This document shows, in pieces, positions 4,055-57,401 of a stretch of 64,000 nt of DNA. The DNA comes from Candidatus Binataceae bacterium. GTDB taxonomy: Bacteria; Desulfobacterota; Binatia; Binatales; Binataceae. The notes under the pieces were generated by a model. The model had not been told where the DNA came from and searched no databases. It worked only from the letters and a program-made list of their open reading frames with translations. The stretch is taken from positions 52,946-116,945 of the forward strand of contig DATGHL010000030.1 of NCBI GenBank assembly GCA_035308025.1, read 5' to 3'. The position numbers and the translations under genes are program-made. Position 1 is the stretch's first letter, and every line of letters begins with the position of its first letter.

Positions 4055-4129
4055 TGGGCCCACCAGGATTTGAACCTGGGACCAGCCGGTTATGAGCCGG
4101 CAGCTCTGACCAGGCTGAGCTATGGGCCC
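4055..4129 (-). tRNA. tRNA with anticodon CAT (elongator Met, or Ile2 if lysidinylated)
   Basis: The reverse complement folds as a cloverleaf. Acceptor stem GGGCCCA/TGGGCCC; U8 A9; D-stem GCTC/GAGC. Anticodon stem GCCGG/CCGGC with loop CTCATAA. T-arm CCAGG-TTCAAAT-CCTGG; discriminator A. CCA is not encoded. The anticodon stem lacks the three consecutive G-C pairs of initiator tRNA. Confidence 0.8.
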
Positions 4130-49993: not shown

Positions 49994-51363
49994 CAGTGCA
50001 GCCTTCCCACGCGGGCGTCATAGACGATTTTGCCTTCGACGATGGACAGCATCGCCCTTCCCTTGAGCTCCCTTCCAGCAAACGGGGTGTTCCGACTGAG
50101 CGAGAGAAATTTACTCGGATCGACGATCCACGGGTAATTCGGATCGATTACAGTAACGTCACTGCGAGCGCCAGCCGTCAGCCTGCCCGCGCCCTCGAGG
50201 CGAAGCAAGCGCGCGGGATTCAGCGACATCATCTCGACCATCCGCTGCGGCGTGATTAAGCCTTCGTGGACCATCGCGAGCGCAAGCCCGAGCGCGGTTT
50301 CGAGACCGACCACGCCATTTGCAGCAGCCGCCAGGGCTTGCGCTTCATCGGACGACAACCGCCCCCCCCGACGGCTTGCACCAAAGAGCGGCCCCAAAAG
50401 ATTCAACCCCTTCGACATAGAATCGTGTGGCGCGTGATCAGTTGCGATCATGTCGATCGTGCCGTCCGCGATCGCCGCGCGTATCGCGTCACGATCGCGC
50501 CGGCTTCTGAGCGGGGGCGACATGCGCGCGTTTGCGCCGCACTCCAGCACCGCGTCGTCCTCTAGCATGAAATGATGCGGCGTGGCCTCGCAGGTCACGG
50601 CGAGGCCGCGTTGTCGCGCCTCGCGCACCGCCCGTACAGCCTCCGCGGTCGAAATGTGCGCGACATGAACCGGCGCTCTTGCACCCAGCGCGATCTCCAG
50701 ATCTCGCTCCACGCGCGCACTCTCGGCGCCAGACGGGATACCGCGGACACCGAGCCGACGGGCCGTCGCGCCCTCGTTCATGGCGCCATTCGCGGTCAGC
50801 GCGCGGTCTTCCTCGTGCAATGAGATCACAAAGCCCGATGCGGTGACGCTGCGCAGCGCGGTCGCCAGCAGCGCGGCATCGTCGATCGGGATGCCATCGT
50901 CCGAAAACAGCCGGGCGCCCGCCGCGGCCATCGCCGCGACGTCGATCAGTTCGCGTCCTGCGAGTCCCTTGGTCACCGCCGCGACCGGTACGAGGTGCGC
51001 CCCGCCCGCCTGCGCAGCGCGTTCGATCATGTAATGCGTAATTTCCGGGGTATCGTTGACCGGGGCCGTATTCGCCATCGCGGCGACGGTCGTAAAGCCG
51101 CCGGCCGCGGCGGCGCGCAAGCCGCTGAAAATTGTCTCCTTCTCCGGATTACCCGGATCGCGCAGATGAACATGCGGATCAATCAGACCCGGCACGACCC
51201 AACACCCCGCACACTCGATCGTCGTTACGGGTTCCTGCCCCGGCCATCGCGCGATCACTTCCGCAGATGCGATTCGACCGTCGAGCAACAGAAGATCGGC
51301 GACGCCGTCGAAACCACCTGCAGGATCAATAACCCGCCCGCCCTTGAGGAAAATTCCGCTCAT
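49993..51363 (-). CDS. pyrC: Dihydroorotase (amidohydrolase, type I-like)
   Basis: 456 aa. [14 protein letters not shown] metal-binding motif. Confidence 0.88.
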
Positions 51364-53300
51364 CGCACCGCGCGCGCCTCAGTAAAAGGCTCGACCATCG
51401 AGTAAATCACCACGCGATCGGCGAGTTTGCGGCCGTCAGCGCCCGCGGCTTTAAGGCGCACCTGGACGCGCTCGGTCTGCGCAGTCGGGATACTTTTGCC
51501 GATATAATTCGGCCGGATCGGCACTGCGCGATGGCCCCGATCGATCAGCACCGCGAGCTGCACCGACGCCGGACGCCCGTGCCGCCATAACGCCGTCATC
51601 GCGCGTTGCACGGTCCAGCCGCTGTTAATCACGTCGTCAACCAGGACGATCGCGCGGCCATCGACGATAAACCTCCCCCCGCTATCCTCGATTCGGCGCA
51701 AACCGGCGTCGCTCGCATAGACGTCCACCGCGGCGCAGGCCGGGCGCACGCCGGTGCGGGCTTGCACGAGCTCCCGCAATCTCATCGCAAGAATTGCCCC
51801 GCGGCTGATCACGCCGACGATCGCGAGCTGCGCCGGGTCCGCCACGCCGGCCACGATCTGATCCGCCATGGTCTGACAGGCTTGTTCGATTTCGGCCGCG
51901 TTCATCAGCTCGCGCTGCGGGCCTCGCTTGTAAGGCTCGTAGCCTCGCTCCTCCGCCTCTTTAACGGTCTCGAAAACCGCCAGGGAGCCCTCTGCGATCC
52001 ACTGCTGCACGTAGCCGTAGAGATTCTCGTCAAAATGATAGTACCGATGCGCCGTGGCATGGCCGACGTACTCGGCGCGCAGCTCGCGTTCGCAGAGGTC
52101 GCAGCGGATCGCCAATACCGAACGATCAGCCGCTCGCGCCAGTCGGAAGCGCGGAGAAAGATAAGCGGGTTCGTGCCGCGAAATGCAGCCGGCGTTAACG
52201 CAGCGCGGCGCCGCTTCGTGCTTGAACGCGATCAAGGTTTCACGCGCCGCCGGCGGGCGCTCGCGTTGCGCGGTCTCGAGCATCCAGACGATCAGCGCCA
52301 TCCGCACCGGAACCCCGGCCGCAGCCTGCTCGAAATAAATTGCGCGCGGATCCTTGTCGAACTCATAGGCGAGTTCGTCGGTCCGCGGCAGCGGATGCAG
52401 CACGACGGCCTCCTGCGCACGGCTGCTCCGCAGCGCCCGCGCGTCGAAGTGTACGTAAGCTCCCGCAGCGTCGTCCTTGTCCGCGAAACGCTCGCGCTGG
52501 AGCCGCGTGACGTAAAAGGCGTCGAGCGCTGTCGGCGCCGCTACGGAAACTTTCACCAACAGGTCGTCACCGGTAAACAACGCCATCTGATGAGGCCCGC
52601 TGGGTGTGAGGTACAGGGCGTCGAGCGCCCCGGATTTAGAGCGGAGCTCGTCGAACGTGATCGAAGAGGGTGCGTAATCGTGCTCCGCCGCGATCCGTTC
52701 CAGCACGTATTCCGGCACCCCCATCCCGCCGTAAGGCACCGTCACGATATTCGCGCCGAAGCGGGCGAGTGCATAAATCAACGAGTGGACGGTGCGGCCG
52801 AATTTCAGGTCACCGCAAATCGCGACGGTCAGTCCTTTGAGGCGGCCCTTTTTGCGCCGCAGGATATAGAGATCGCACAGCGTCTGCGTCGGATGCTCGC
52901 GGCTGCCGTCGCCCGCGTTAATCACCGGCGCCGCAGCGTATTCCGCCGCCACTCGCGCCGCGCCGTCATTCGGATGGCGCACCACCAACAGGTCGGCGTA
53001 CGCCGACACGACGCGCACCGTGTCCGCGAGGCTCTCGCCCTTCGCCGCCGACGACGCGTGCATATCCGCCGAACTGATTACCGCGCCGCCCAGGCGATGC
53101 ATCGCGGACTCGAAGCTCAGGCGCGTGCGCGTTGACGGCTCATAAAACAGCGTCGCCATGACCAGACCGCTGGCTAGCGTCAGGTTTTGCCCGCGTTCGA
53201 GCGCCGCGGCAAACGTATCCGCGAGTGTGAAGATGCGCTCGATCTCGCCGATCGAAAGATCTTCAATCGAGACCAGATCGTATTTCGGGATACGCGGCAT
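51360..53300 (-). CDS. pyrB: Aspartate carbamoyltransferase catalytic chain fused to a PyrI-type zinc domain and a PyrR-like phosphoribosyltransferase domain
   Basis: 646 aa in one frame. Residues 1-~345 carry the ATCase motifs STRTR, HPTQ and HPLP. Residues ~350-~460 carry CVNAGCISRHEP...RCDLCERE, matching the PyrI zinc domain. Residues ~465-646 form a PRTase domain (VLVDDVINSGWT...LAVLIDRGHRAVPIRPNYIGK) about 40% identical to the adjacent PyrR. Confidence 0.8.
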   Translation of the reverse strand: MPRIPKYDLVSIEDLSIGEIERIFTLADTFAAALERGQNLTLASGLVMATLFYEPSTRTRLSFESAMHRLGGAVISSADMHASSAAKGESLADTVRVVSAYADLLVVRHPNDGAARVAAEYAAAPVINAGDGSREHPTQTLCDLYILRRKKGRLKGLTVAICGDLKFGRTVHSLIYALARFGANIVTVPYGGMGVPEYVLERIAAEHDYAPSSITFDELRSKSGALDALYLTPSGPHQMALFTGDDLLVKVSVAAPTALDAFYVTRLQRERFADKDDAAGAYVHFDARALRSSRAQEAVVLHPLPRTDELAYEFDKDPRAIYFEQAAAGVPVRMALIVWMLETAQRERPPAARETLIAFKHEAAPRCVNAGCISRHEPAYLSPRFRLARAADRSVLAIRCDLCERELRAEYVGHATAHRYYHFDENLYGYVQQWIAEGSLAVFETVKEAEERGYEPYKRGPQRELMNAAEIEQACQTMADQIVAGVADPAQLAIVGVISRGAILAMRLRELVQARTGVRPACAAVDVYASDAGLRRIEDSGGRFIVDGRAIVLVDDVINSGWTVQRAMTALWRHGRPASVQLAVLIDRGHRAVPIRPNYIGKSIPTAQTERVQVRLKAAGADGRKLADRVVIYSMVEPFTEARAVR

Positions 53301-53303
53301 CGA

Positions 53304-53852
53304 CTAAGCCGCCTTCCGTCCGCCGATCACGACCGCGTCCACGCCGTCAATTTCATTCAGCCGGACGTACACGCGCTGACCCTGCGGCGCCGCGATATTC
53401 TTGCCGACGTAGTCCGCGCGAATCGGCACTTCGTGTTCACCGCGATCGATTAGAACCGCGAGCTCGATCGCTTCCGGGCGTCCCAAGTCAGCCAGCGCCG
53501 TCAGCGCCGCGCGCACCGTTCGCCCGGTATACAGCACGTCATCGACCAGGATCACGCGCCGCCCTTCGAGTTGAAACGGCACGTCGCGCCCGATCAATCG
53601 TGGATCGCCCGCAGCGCCGCGACCGTCGTCGCGATAGGATGAAATGTCGAGAGTGCCGACCGGAATTCGCCCCGCCCCGATCTGCGCGAGCGCCTCGGCG
53701 ATCCGGCCCGCCAGCTTGGCGCCCCGCCGCACTATTCCGACGAGTACGATCCGCTCCTGCGCAGTGTTGCGCTCCGCGATTTCGTGCGCGATCCGCCGCA
53801 CCGCGCGCGCGACCGCCTCGCCGTCCATCGCCGTAGCCGCGAAGGCGCTCAC
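53304..53852 (-). CDS. pyrR: Bifunctional pyrimidine operon regulator/uracil phosphoribosyltransferase PyrR
   Basis: 182 aa. VILVDDVLYTGRTVRAAL...LAVLIDRGEHEVPIRADYVGKN. Confidence 0.9.
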   Translation of the reverse strand: MSAFAATAMDGEAVARAVRRIAHEIAERNTAQERIVLVGIVRRGAKLAGRIAEALAQIGAGRIPVGTLDISSYRDDGRGAAGDPRLIGRDVPFQLEGRRVILVDDVLYTGRTVRAALTALADLGRPEAIELAVLIDRGEHEVPIRADYVGKNIAAPQGQRVYVRLNEIDGVDAVVIGGRKAA

Positions 53853-53888
53853 GCGCGACTCCCGGCTTCGGCCCTCGAGGGCTTCTTC

Positions 53889-53922
53889 AGAAAAACGACC
53901 GGCGCGCGTTTGCGGCCGGTCG
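53889..53922 (-). terminator. Intrinsic terminator/attenuator hairpin in the pyrR leader
   Basis: Minus-strand transcript: cgaccggc-cgcaaacgcgc-gccggtcg followed by ttttt. An 8-bp GC-rich stem plus U-tract, about 70-100 nt upstream of the pyrR start. Confidence 0.55.
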
Positions 53923-53953
53923 CTGCTGAATACAACTTCATCTTTTTCCCTTG

Positions 53954-53968
53954 CCGCCCTCGCAGGAG
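53954..53968 (-). promoter_or_regulatory. Candidate PyrR-binding loop (UCCNGNGAGG-like) upstream of the attenuator
   Basis: The minus-strand RNA reads cgcUCCUGCGAGGGcgg, matching the PyrR box core UCC-N-G-N-GAGG. Confidence 0.35.
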
Positions 53969-54085
53969 CGGCTTAAAAGGCTACGAAGATTTTACCGCGC
54001 GTAGCGGTTCAGTCAATTCATGATTTCTGCGCCGCCGCGAGGTTATTCACAACAGCACTTTGCCGCTGTACGGTGCAGGACTTCG

Positions 54086-54790
54086 CTAGCGCGTCGCGGT
54101 GCGCCGTTCGAGTTTGCGCAGGCGCTGATCCTGATCCCGCGTCTGCACCGTCAGGCGATCGTCGAAACGCTCGAATTTGCGGGTCAGACTGACCAGCGCC
54201 TTGTTGGTCTGCTTGAGCTCGCTGTCAATCTTCTTGACGAGGGCGCTGGACGACGCGGAAATTTCCTCGCGCACGCCCTCCGCGACTGCCGGCAATTCGC
54301 GGGCGAAATCTTTGCGCGCGGAGATCAGCTCTTTACGCAACGTTTCACCCGCCGCAGTTATCTCGCTCTTGAGTTGCGAGCTGGCAGCAGCCGCTCCCGC
54401 CGCGAACTCTTCGGCTACACGCTCGCGGATGCGCACCGCCGAGGTCTCCGCAGTCTCCGTCAGTCCCTGGCGCAGCGCGCCGAGCTGCTCGCGAAACTCA
54501 ACCCGCGTGGCGCCGAGCATCTCGCCGAGCCTGACCATCTCGGCGCCCAGATCGGCGCGAGTCAGCGCGTTAGCTTCGCGATTCTCGGCGATCCGATCGG
54601 AGATAAACCGCACCTGGCGGCCAACCTCGGCAAACTGGCCGACCATTTCACCGCGCACGGCGTCGAGCTTACCGCCGAAGCCGGTCACCGCCTCCAGCAC
54701 AATCTCGAAGCGCGCGCTGAGTTGTTCGAGTAGCACTCCAATGCGGTTAGCCACGTCCTCGCCCACCCGAATCTCCCCTTCCATGTTCAA
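54086..54790 (-). CDS. Coiled-coil hypothetical protein
   Basis: 234 aa, highly helical with heptad-like repeats. Downstream of lepB in the same orientation. Confidence 0.5.
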   Translation of the reverse strand: MNMEGEIRVGEDVANRIGVLLEQLSARFEIVLEAVTGFGGKLDAVRGEMVGQFAEVGRQVRFISDRIAENREANALTRADLGAEMVRLGEMLGATRVEFREQLGALRQGLTETAETSAVRIRERVAEEFAAGAAAASSQLKSEITAAGETLRKELISARKDFARELPAVAEGVREEISASSSALVKKIDSELKQTNKALVSLTRKFERFDDRLTVQTRDQDQRLRKLERRTATR

Positions 54791-54841
54791 CTGGATACCC
54801 TATCTTCCGGGATGGAACAACTATCTTATGGGATGAATCAA

Positions 54842-55546
54842 CTATCGTATGGGATGGAACAACCGGGACCAGCGGACGTCATAGAAACAGGTGAGCGGCG
54901 AGCTGTCGTCGGCGCACGACCAGTAGATAAACATCGCACGTCCCTCGATAGCGTCGCGCGAGACCGGGCCCCAGAAACGGCTGTCGTAGCTGCGGTCGCG
55001 ATTATCCCCCATCATGAAATACTGACCGGGCTGAATCCTGACCGCCTCAAGCGTATCGCGCGGCGAAGTCGAGCGCTCGTTGGGCCCGACCTCGAAGTGC
55101 GTGTAAGGCGCGTCAACCTGAACGCCGTTCAGAATCAGCATCCCGTTCTTGATTTCGACGACATCACCCGGAATCGCGACGACGCGTTTGATGAAATCCT
55201 TGGTCTGATCTTCGGGATAGACGAAGACCACAACATCGCCGCGATGGACCCGCTCGAGCTGGAACAAATATTTGCCGTAGGGGATCTCGCCGGCAAACGG
55301 GGTCAGGCCGAAAATCGAATCCGGCATGCGCAGGCCAAAGACCAGCTTGTTGACGATTATATGATCGCCGATGAGCAGCGTCCGCTCCATCGAGCCCGAG
55401 GGAATCTTGTAGGCCTGGATCAGAAAAGTGCGCAGGACGATCGCTAGCGCCAGCGCGACGGCGAAGGCCTCGCCATACTCGCGCAGGGCGGATTTGCGCG
55501 ATTCCGTGACAGGCGGCGCGGGCCATTTGCGGGCCGGTTCACTCAT
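54842..55546 (-). CDS. lepB: Signal peptidase I
   Basis: Catalytic Ser motif IPSGSMERTL and Lys box GDNRDRSYDSRFWG. Confidence 0.9.
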   Translation of the reverse strand: MSEPARKWPAPPVTESRKSALREYGEAFAVALALAIVLRTFLIQAYKIPSGSMERTLLIGDHIIVNKLVFGLRMPDSIFGLTPFAGEIPYGKYLFQLERVHRGDVVVFVYPEDQTKDFIKRVVAIPGDVVEIKNGMLILNGVQVDAPYTHFEVGPNERSTSPRDTLEAVRIQPGQYFMMGDNRDRSYDSRFWGPVSRDAIEGRAMFIYWSCADDSSPLTCFYDVRWSRLFHPIR

Positions 55547-55553
55547 AGCCCGC

Positions 55554-57356
<1,803 letters not shown>

Positions 57357-57401
57357 CAAAGAGTCGGCACTCCGCCGAAGCGCGAGCATAGCACGCCGAA
57401 A

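Follow-up and report, generated by a model that had tools for sequence, protein, structure and literature searches.

A PyrR-type pyrimidine leader in Candidatus Binataceae with a short reading frame across its terminator

How is a pyrimidine operon switched on and off when its leader carries a PyrR-type hairpin and a terminator, and nothing that resembles an antiterminator? This question is raised by a 64,000-nucleotide (nt) stretch of DNA from a Candidatus Binataceae bacterium (hereafter the window), in which the pyrR leader fills the 233-nt spacer between an apolipoprotein-like gene (stop 54086) and the pyrR GUG start codon (53852). The genes that follow the leader are, in order, pyrR (182 amino acids), a pyrB fusion (646 amino acids), pyrC, carA and carB. 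A first-pass annotation of the sequence had read this leader as an attenuator of the Bacillus type. The analysis described here retains both PyrR and the attenuator, and suggests that the leader is probably one in which a translating ribosome, moving along a short open reading frame (ORF) and coupled to the translation of pyrR, plays the antiterminator's role. All leader coordinates are window positions on the minus strand, and the elements concerned are the following:

53948..53980, minus strand: PyrR binding-loop hairpin, sequence CCUUUUAAGCCGCUCCUGCGAGGGCGGCAAGGG, identified by RF00515 alignment, folding and covariation
53948..53952, minus strand: AAGGG, which forms the 3' strand of the binding loop's lower stem and doubles as the Shine-Dalgarno sequence for the leader ORF, whose AUG follows 7 nt later (anti-Shine-Dalgarno pairing, -7.0 kcal/mol)
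53849..53941, minus strand: leader ORF, 30 codons plus stop, MKLYSAATGRKRAPVVFLKKPSRAEAGSRA, with its AUG 7 nt after the hairpin
53896..53922, minus strand: intrinsic terminator stem-loop of 11 base pairs (bp), with an AAAC tetraloop and one bulge, from folding (-22.6 kcal/mol)
53891..53895, minus strand: U-tract UUUUU of the terminator, within Val-Phe codons of the leader ORF
53859..53863, minus strand: GGGAG, the Shine-Dalgarno sequence of pyrR itself (-6.9 kcal/mol in the window)
53304..53852, minus strand: pyrR, 182 amino acids, GUG start, first gene of the operon, identified by NF003549 and by structure homology

The RNA parts that the first-pass annotation had pointed out are both present. 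The GC-rich 8-bp hairpin followed by UUUUU lies upstream of pyrR where it had been placed, with its arms CGACCGGC (53922-53915) and GCCGGUCG (53903-53896) paired to each other. The '11-nt loop' noted at that stage holds three more pairs (CGC/GCG), giving an 11-bp stem with a ΔG of about -22.6 kcal/mol, located 44-70 nt upstream of the pyrR GUG. A simple terminator scan found nothing here because it allowed loops of at most 8 nt, and explicit folding was used instead. The PyrR-box-like motif 5' of the terminator is UCCUGCGAGGG at 53967-53957, 34 nt from the terminator stem, and lies within a PyrR-type hairpin as its core. This hairpin (about -14 kcal/mol) comprises a lower stem CCUUU/AAGGG, a UAA internal loop on the 5' side, a 6-bp upper stem CCGCUC/GGGCGG and the hexaloop CUGCGA. 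The geometry is that of RF00515, the Rfam family of PyrR binding sites, namely a CCUU/AAGG lower stem, UAA, a 6-bp upper stem and a CNGNGA hexaloop with a terminator on the 3' side; as in the family definition, the hexaloop carries UCCNGNGAGG, and the element stands in a pyrimidine gene's 5' leader, with PyrR encoded by the same genome.

In a sensitive scan of positions 53750-54200, RF00515 model positions 1-115 aligned to 53983-53888 with 44 bits (E = 6.7e-5 for the 451-nt search, and about 1e-2 by our own scaling to the 64-kb window). At the gathering threshold of 54 bits the whole window gave no match to RF00515, such that the family match anticipated by the first-pass annotation exists at full length but not at threshold. 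When the same threshold was applied to 20 pyrR loci from many phyla, Bacillus badius alone passed, while Enterococcus and 18 other non-Bacillus loci failed; L166, a close relative of the window, scored 42.8 bits. The sub-threshold score is not decisive, since the 54-bit cut-off also drops every non-Bacillus pyrR locus tested.

The 10-mer core YCCNGNGAGR was rejected as stand-alone evidence, as its nine matches in the window against 11.3 expected are what chance would give. A CCUUU...AAGG hairpin surrounds just one of them, the copy at 53958-53967, and the other eight have no hairpin context. No further PyrR site was found in the window with a loop-plus-terminator model, which would miss a loop-only site. 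The whole element, loop and terminator together, significantly exceeds chance.

Conservation was examined in relatives with PyrR proteins 67-89% identical, taken from genome and metagenome collections, which together with the window provided 17 distinct leaders. The closest genomes are metagenome-assembled genomes (MAGs) of Candidatus Binataceae, with PyrR 72-73% identical. Between the binding loop and the U-tract the 17 leaders can be aligned with hardly any gaps, and the pairs of the loop and terminator are kept in 89.9% of cells, a share that falls to 40-48% once the partners are shifted by 1-3 columns. In nine pairs both members have changed, and the observed values were reached by only 0-2 of 500 shuffles on each of five measures. 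In the upper stem of the loop four of the six pairs have changed on both sides, with 96% of cells paired, and compensatory changes are seen in five of the 11 terminator pairs. The U-run begins 82-86 nt from the start of the binding loop in every relative. A covariance model built from the 17 leaders (R1, whose training rows include the window sequence itself) finds exactly one site in the window, with 85 bits, and R1 also matches just upstream of pyrR in most of 154 other pyrR loci from many phyla.

Some relatives have a diverged binding loop. At L001:2877-2906, L084:903-932 and L083:2849-2879, UCCUGCGAGGG is replaced by UCACGAGAUGG or UCACUGAGAGGA, with a 5-nt loop closed by a compensatory A-U pair in L001 and L084. 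Judged from these sequences, the divergence suggests co-variation of PyrR specificity within the clade.

The antiterminator is the part of the Bacillus-type arrangement that could not be found. Leaders were folded after truncation just before the 3' arm of the terminator, and the probability of pairing between the terminator 5' arm and the 3' half of the loop was taken, with Bacilli as positive controls. There were 11 scorable relatives, L001, L002, L171 and L175 being left out as the terminator or loop finder had missed them. In the window, for all transcript lengths between 40 and 165 nt, the minimum-energy fold retains the loop, with the terminator joining it. No antiterminator overlaps the terminator 5' arm, an outcome that the same annotation had named beforehand as one that would overturn its anti-antiterminator reading. 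The pairing probability is 0.00 in the window, 0.00-0.14 in ten of the 11 scorable relatives and 0.29 in the other one, and the binding loop is retained at 0.6-0.9 in the window and in all but one of these relatives. In most Bacilli controls, by contrast, the terminator arm pairs with the loop at 0.4-0.9 and the loop's own pairs fall to 0-0.1, the structure detected being the classic GAGAGG/CCUCUC antiterminator. The gap between loop and terminator is 25 nt in the window and 23-36 nt overall (mostly 23-29 nt), compared with typically 41-62 nt in Bacilli. The only complementarity visible by eye is GCGGC/GCCGC (5 bp), which has a negligible probability.

Other pairings of the leader are of a minor kind. 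A palindromic sequence, CCCUCGAGGG, lies within the leader ORF on the 3' side of the terminator (53871-53880, minus strand) and in some folds forms a small hairpin or pairs with the binding-loop core; it sits in the spacer between terminator and pyrR, whose length and sequence differ widely from one relative to the next. In the minimum-energy folds of the window and of L002, the binding loop also pairs over a long range with the Shine-Dalgarno region of pyrR. This pairing was rejected as a general feature, L002 alone differing from shuffles (z = -3).

What the leader does contain is a reading frame laid across the terminator. The terminator falls within codons 7-16 of the leader ORF, and the UGA stop codon (53851-53849) overlaps the pyrR GUG (53852-53850) as GUGA. 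The same layout is found in all 16 other distinct leaders from Binataceae relatives, where the AUG stands 5-9 nt after the loop, the frame runs for 21-41 codons across the terminator and the UGA overlaps the pyrR start (A/G/UUG) as NUGA. The distance from the AUG to pyrR equals 2 modulo 3 in 16 of 16 measured leaders, even though it takes ten different lengths between 62 and 122 nt, and by our estimate such agreement in frame has a chance probability of about (1/3)^9. Moreover, the second codon of pyrR always begins with A, whether it stands for Ser, Thr, Ile, Met or Asn, with Ser always written AGC or AGU, and this invariant A indicates selection for the overlapping stop. On the comparative sequence evidence, both the frame and the NUGA overlap are under selection. 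The leader peptides are not conserved, save where the terminator imposes a sequence, as in the Phe-Phe encoded by the U-tract.

The initiation signals of the frame are kept as well. A Shine-Dalgarno sequence for the leader ORF, formed by the AAGG(U/G) of the lower stem, is present in each of the 16 leaders measured (-4.7 to -8.6 kcal/mol), and AAGG is invariant in the alignment of the relatives' leaders. A Shine-Dalgarno sequence for pyrR is virtually absent from seven relatives (L001, L081, L084, L171, L173, L174 and L175; +1.5 to -2.5 kcal/mol), which implies that pyrR must there rely on coupling by termination and reinitiation. GC content drops to 0.44 over the opening 24 nt of the leader ORF, compared with 0.63 across the locus (p = 2e-4), in keeping with an initiation region; this start is also somewhat U-rich (0.28 versus 0.19). 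The terminator is held at a fixed distance from the AUG, with 17-23 nt to the start of the stem and 42-49 nt to its end (standard deviation 1.7 in both cases, 15 leaders), unlike the distance from the stem to pyrR, which ranges from 17 to 79 nt (standard deviation 18).

The leader ORF is unannotated in every public record inspected. Public gene calls in L164-L166 (P0019, 207 amino acids) and L173 (P0093, 199 amino acids) extend pyrR upstream to an in-frame start within the terminator region; in these loci homology and the NUGA overlap support a pyrR start that gives a protein of 182-185 amino acids.

Upstream of the binding loop the spacer holds a sigma-70-like promoter for the pyr operon:

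54011..54016, minus strand: -35 hexamer TTGACT
53989..53994, minus strand: -10 hexamer TAAAAT, separated from TTGACT by a 16-nt spacer

This promoter, TTGACT-16-TAAAAT (54016-53989), has 10 of 12 matches, and one such site was found compared with 0.2 expected in shuffles. From the promoter spacing, transcription would start at about 53982, which would put the PyrR binding loop at the extreme 5' end of the mRNA. An equivalent promoter is present in relatives, where, in 12 of 14 checked, 7-9 nt separate the end of the -10 box from the binding loop, again indicating that the loop is the very 5' end of the message.

The first gene of the operon encodes what is likely the trans-acting RNA-binding regulator of this leader. 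The 182-amino-acid PyrR scores 203 bits against the NF003549 equivalog (cut-off 138) and matches the PyrR structures of Bacillus subtilis (1A3C, E = 5e-50), Thermus thermophilus (1UFR, 3e-48) and Mycobacterium tuberculosis (1W30, 2e-37). The RNA-binding residues of the B. subtilis protein we take to be T18, R19, H22, R27, R141 and R146. When the window protein was compared by eye with 1A3C using this list, the segments R-I-A-H-E..E-R-N and P-I-R-A-D were found to be kept, and the equivalents of T18 and R141 are R and H, respectively.

With a PyrR-type loop, a terminator, a position at the 5' end of the pyrR-pyrB(fusion)-pyrC-carA-carB mRNA and a bona fide PyrR gene, attenuation of the operon by PyrR, as proposed at first pass, is a sensible reading. 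The leader ORF suggests how it might work. Transcription would begin at about 53982, making the PyrR-binding hairpin (53980-53948) the first RNA to emerge. When pyrimidines are scarce PyrR would be off the RNA, and a ribosome would load on the leader ORF (AUG at 53941) and trail the RNA polymerase. With the polymerase at the U-tract (+47 to +51 counted from the AUG), the coupled ribosome would cover the terminator 5' arm (+20 to +30), whose onset is 19 nt past the AUG; the terminator hairpin could then not form, and the polymerase would read into pyrR, pyrB(fusion), pyrC and carAB. A ribosome ending at GUGA would re-initiate on pyrR. When uridine monophosphate (UMP) or uridine triphosphate (UTP) is plentiful, PyrR would clamp the hairpin and hide the AAGG and AUG region from the 30S subunit, so that the untranslated leader would fold the terminator and transcription would stop at the U-tract. 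Any read-through RNA made under PyrR would in addition lose its translational coupling to pyrR.

Several points weigh against this model of ribosome-dependent attenuation. The RF00515 score lies below the gathering threshold. The hairpin is stable on its own with AAGG already paired, which bears on how a ribosome would load even when PyrR is away. The pyrR gene of the window keeps its own GGGAG, making coupling less compelling here than in the relatives. A 30-codon open frame is not rare in DNA of 64% GC, and the case for the leader ORF rests on the comparative evidence. Both the translation of the leader ORF and the binding of PyrR to the leader RNA are steps that we infer. Finally, the likeness to a Thermus leader discussed below draws on the reported features of that leader and on a Deinococcus locus, and is to that extent an analogy.

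Four other explanations were considered alongside it. In the Bacillus-type switch the loop 3' half and the terminator 5' arm would form an antiterminator when PyrR is away, and the loop held by PyrR would act as an anti-antiterminator. This is the best-known PyrR mechanism and the loop and terminator do follow the RF00515 order and consensus; however, the minimum-energy folds, the pairing probabilities, the short gap and the negligible 5-bp complementarity described above all speak against it, and it would leave the invariant leader ORF and its NUGA overlap unexplained. We regard it as highly improbable. The thought that the motif and hairpin resemble a PyrR site by chance and are unrelated to PyrR could draw on the chance frequency of the 10-mer core in the window and on the sub-threshold RF00515 score. 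It must be set against the full-length RF00515 alignment, the position of the element between promoter and pyrR, the covariation in 17 leaders and the R1 matches before pyrR in most of the 154 other loci, and is effectively refuted by these comparative sequence data.

The other two explanations accept PyrR and differ in what the ribosome does. Under purely translational control PyrR would block the leader ribosome-binding site (RBS), and through it only the coupled translation of pyrR, a repression of the Mycobacterium type exerted via an upstream ORF; the hairpin with its U-tract would be a constitutive, leaky terminator or an mRNA-stabilising element, indifferent to translation. The Shine-Dalgarno sequence within the binding loop and the conserved NUGA coupling would fit, as would the 17 loci in other phyla where the loop lies directly on the pyrR RBS. 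Against this, the terminator is in every case enclosed by the leader ORF, with a constant 17-23 nt between it and the AUG, its U-run and compensatory stem changes are kept, and coupling to pyrR alone would leave pyrB, pyrC and carAB, which have their own starts, unregulated. This explanation is unlikely, though it deserves to be taken seriously. Alternatively the leader might be untranslated, with PyrR at the hairpin promoting termination directly, for instance by blocking a non-canonical competing fold or slowing the polymerase, and the frame being a by-product of GC content. Open frames of 20-40 codons are indeed common at 60-65% GC, and the leader ORF is missing from the gene calls of public records. 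The frame is, however, kept over ten lengths together with the AUG spacing, the Shine-Dalgarno sequence, the forced A of pyrR codon 2 and the seven relatives without a pyrR Shine-Dalgarno sequence, a combination very unlikely to arise by chance, and a leader of this kind is accordingly given very little credence.

The second gene of the operon carries a PyrR-like domain of its own. The PyrB fusion (646 amino acids; window 51360-53300, minus strand) consists of the catalytic domains of aspartate transcarbamoylase (ATCase), a PyrI_C-like zinc domain (residues 366-410) and a PyrR-like C-terminal domain (residues 462-619) that scores 131 bits against NF003549 and is 38% identical to the PyrR of the operon. 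The basic N-terminal helix reads VRRIAHEIAERN in PyrR and CQTMADQIVAGV in the fusion domain, a change of sequence suggesting that the latter has probably lost RNA binding; it may instead serve ATCase as a regulatory domain that senses nucleotides. Every Binatia-type locus with a complete, uninterrupted gene keeps the fusion (644-650 amino acids).

On the other side of the leader are lepA and lepB. The order lepA, lepB, a protein of 203-235 amino acids and then pyrR is kept across most Binatia-type loci (window 54086-57389, minus strand; L161, L165 and L169-L176), the intervening protein having weak apolipoprotein-like repeats and no NCBIfam match. The sole Rfam match at gathering score in the window is a tRNA gene (4055-4129, minus strand, 69 bits).

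How widespread this type of leader may be was gauged in a rough survey of 176 pyrR loci. The leader-ORF class comprised 38 loci, namely all 22 Binatia-type loci together with MAGs of Zixibacteria, Bacteroidota, Roseiflexaceae and Marinimicrobia. In 17 loci, a separate class of the Mycobacterium type, the loop lay on the pyrR RBS (within 45 nt of pyrR), and a remaining class of 78 loci includes the Bacillus antiterminator type. A regular expression missed the loop in 41 loci, among them a Deinococcus locus (L027), and two had too little upstream sequence; because of these misses the class counts by phylum are rough lower bounds. The sequences thus point to at least three architectures of PyrR leader: leader ORF with NUGA, loop on the pyrR RBS, and Bacillus antiterminator. 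RF00515 at its gathering score recognises the Bacillus type only.

These observations matter mainly for annotation. They give the pyrimidine operon of the uncultured and little-studied Candidatus Binataceae what is probably its true mode of regulation, where the textbook Bacillus model would mis-annotate it. Non-Firmicute PyrR leaders are missed at the RF00515 gathering score, and gene callers overlook the leader ORF every time and in some cases place the pyrR start as far upstream as the terminator. To our knowledge a PyrR mechanism with the ribosome as antiterminator has only ever been proposed for Thermus, and the NUGA overlap, the frame kept over ten lengths, the fixed spacing from AUG to terminator and the loss of the pyrR Shine-Dalgarno sequence lend it support at the level of sequence. 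The element itself belongs to a known, under-described kind; it is ordinary, would not surprise a specialist and raises no new biological question.

The known systems share different parts with the window leader. The B. subtilis pyr attenuators, which RF00515 represents, have the same loop consensus (CCUU..UAA..UCCNGNGAGG..AAGG), a terminator and a homologous PyrR, and differ in having three sites per operon where the window has one, and an antiterminator where the window has a leader ORF. The pyr operon of Mycobacterium smegmatis is reportedly subject to PyrR-dependent translational repression, the occluded RBS being that of the first pyr gene and no terminator being present. An RBS within the PyrR binding loop is common to both systems; in the window, however, it is the RBS of the leader ORF, the terminator lies within that ORF, and 96 nt, terminator included, separate the end of the loop from the pyrR GUG.

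The pyrBI leader of Escherichia coli is a functional analogue. It is said to have a leader ORF over the terminator, a closely following ribosome that suppresses termination, and UTP sensing through pausing of the polymerase. A leader ORF spanning the terminator and suppression of termination by the ribosome would thus be common to both, whereas E. coli uses no PyrR and senses UTP via pausing, and in the window the signal would presumably be the occupancy of the leader RBS by PyrR. It is conceivable, though doubtful, that two pyrimidine signals converge in one leader, PyrR with UMP or UTP acting on the leader RBS and UTP-sensitive pausing of the pyrBI kind in the AU- and U-rich first 20 nt setting the distance between ribosome and polymerase. 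If so, ribosome-dependent leaders would form a widespread PyrR class of their own (about seven phyla here), one that escapes the Firmicute-trained Rfam model.

The closest likeness is to Thermus. The pyr leader of Thermus strain ZO5, which heads a pyrR-first operon, is said to contain a leader ORF next to the PyrR site that spans the terminator and overlaps the pyrR start; it reportedly has no antiterminator, and a translating ribosome was proposed to prevent the terminator from forming. The window leader has in common with it the PyrR-type site at the 5' end, here with the leader RBS inside the binding loop, the ORF over the terminator, the overlap with the pyrR start and the lack of an antiterminator. 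It differs in phylum and in being shorter (30 codons, and 21-41 in relatives). In the Deinococcus locus L027, from the same phylum as Thermus, a 27-codon ORF follows the PyrR box, runs through the terminator and ends as AUGA at pyrR, with 34 nt between AUG and terminator compared with 17-23 nt in the Binatia-type leaders. Overall, by analogy with these leaders, the mechanism at work in the Candidatus Binataceae operon is likely to be the one proposed for Thermus.

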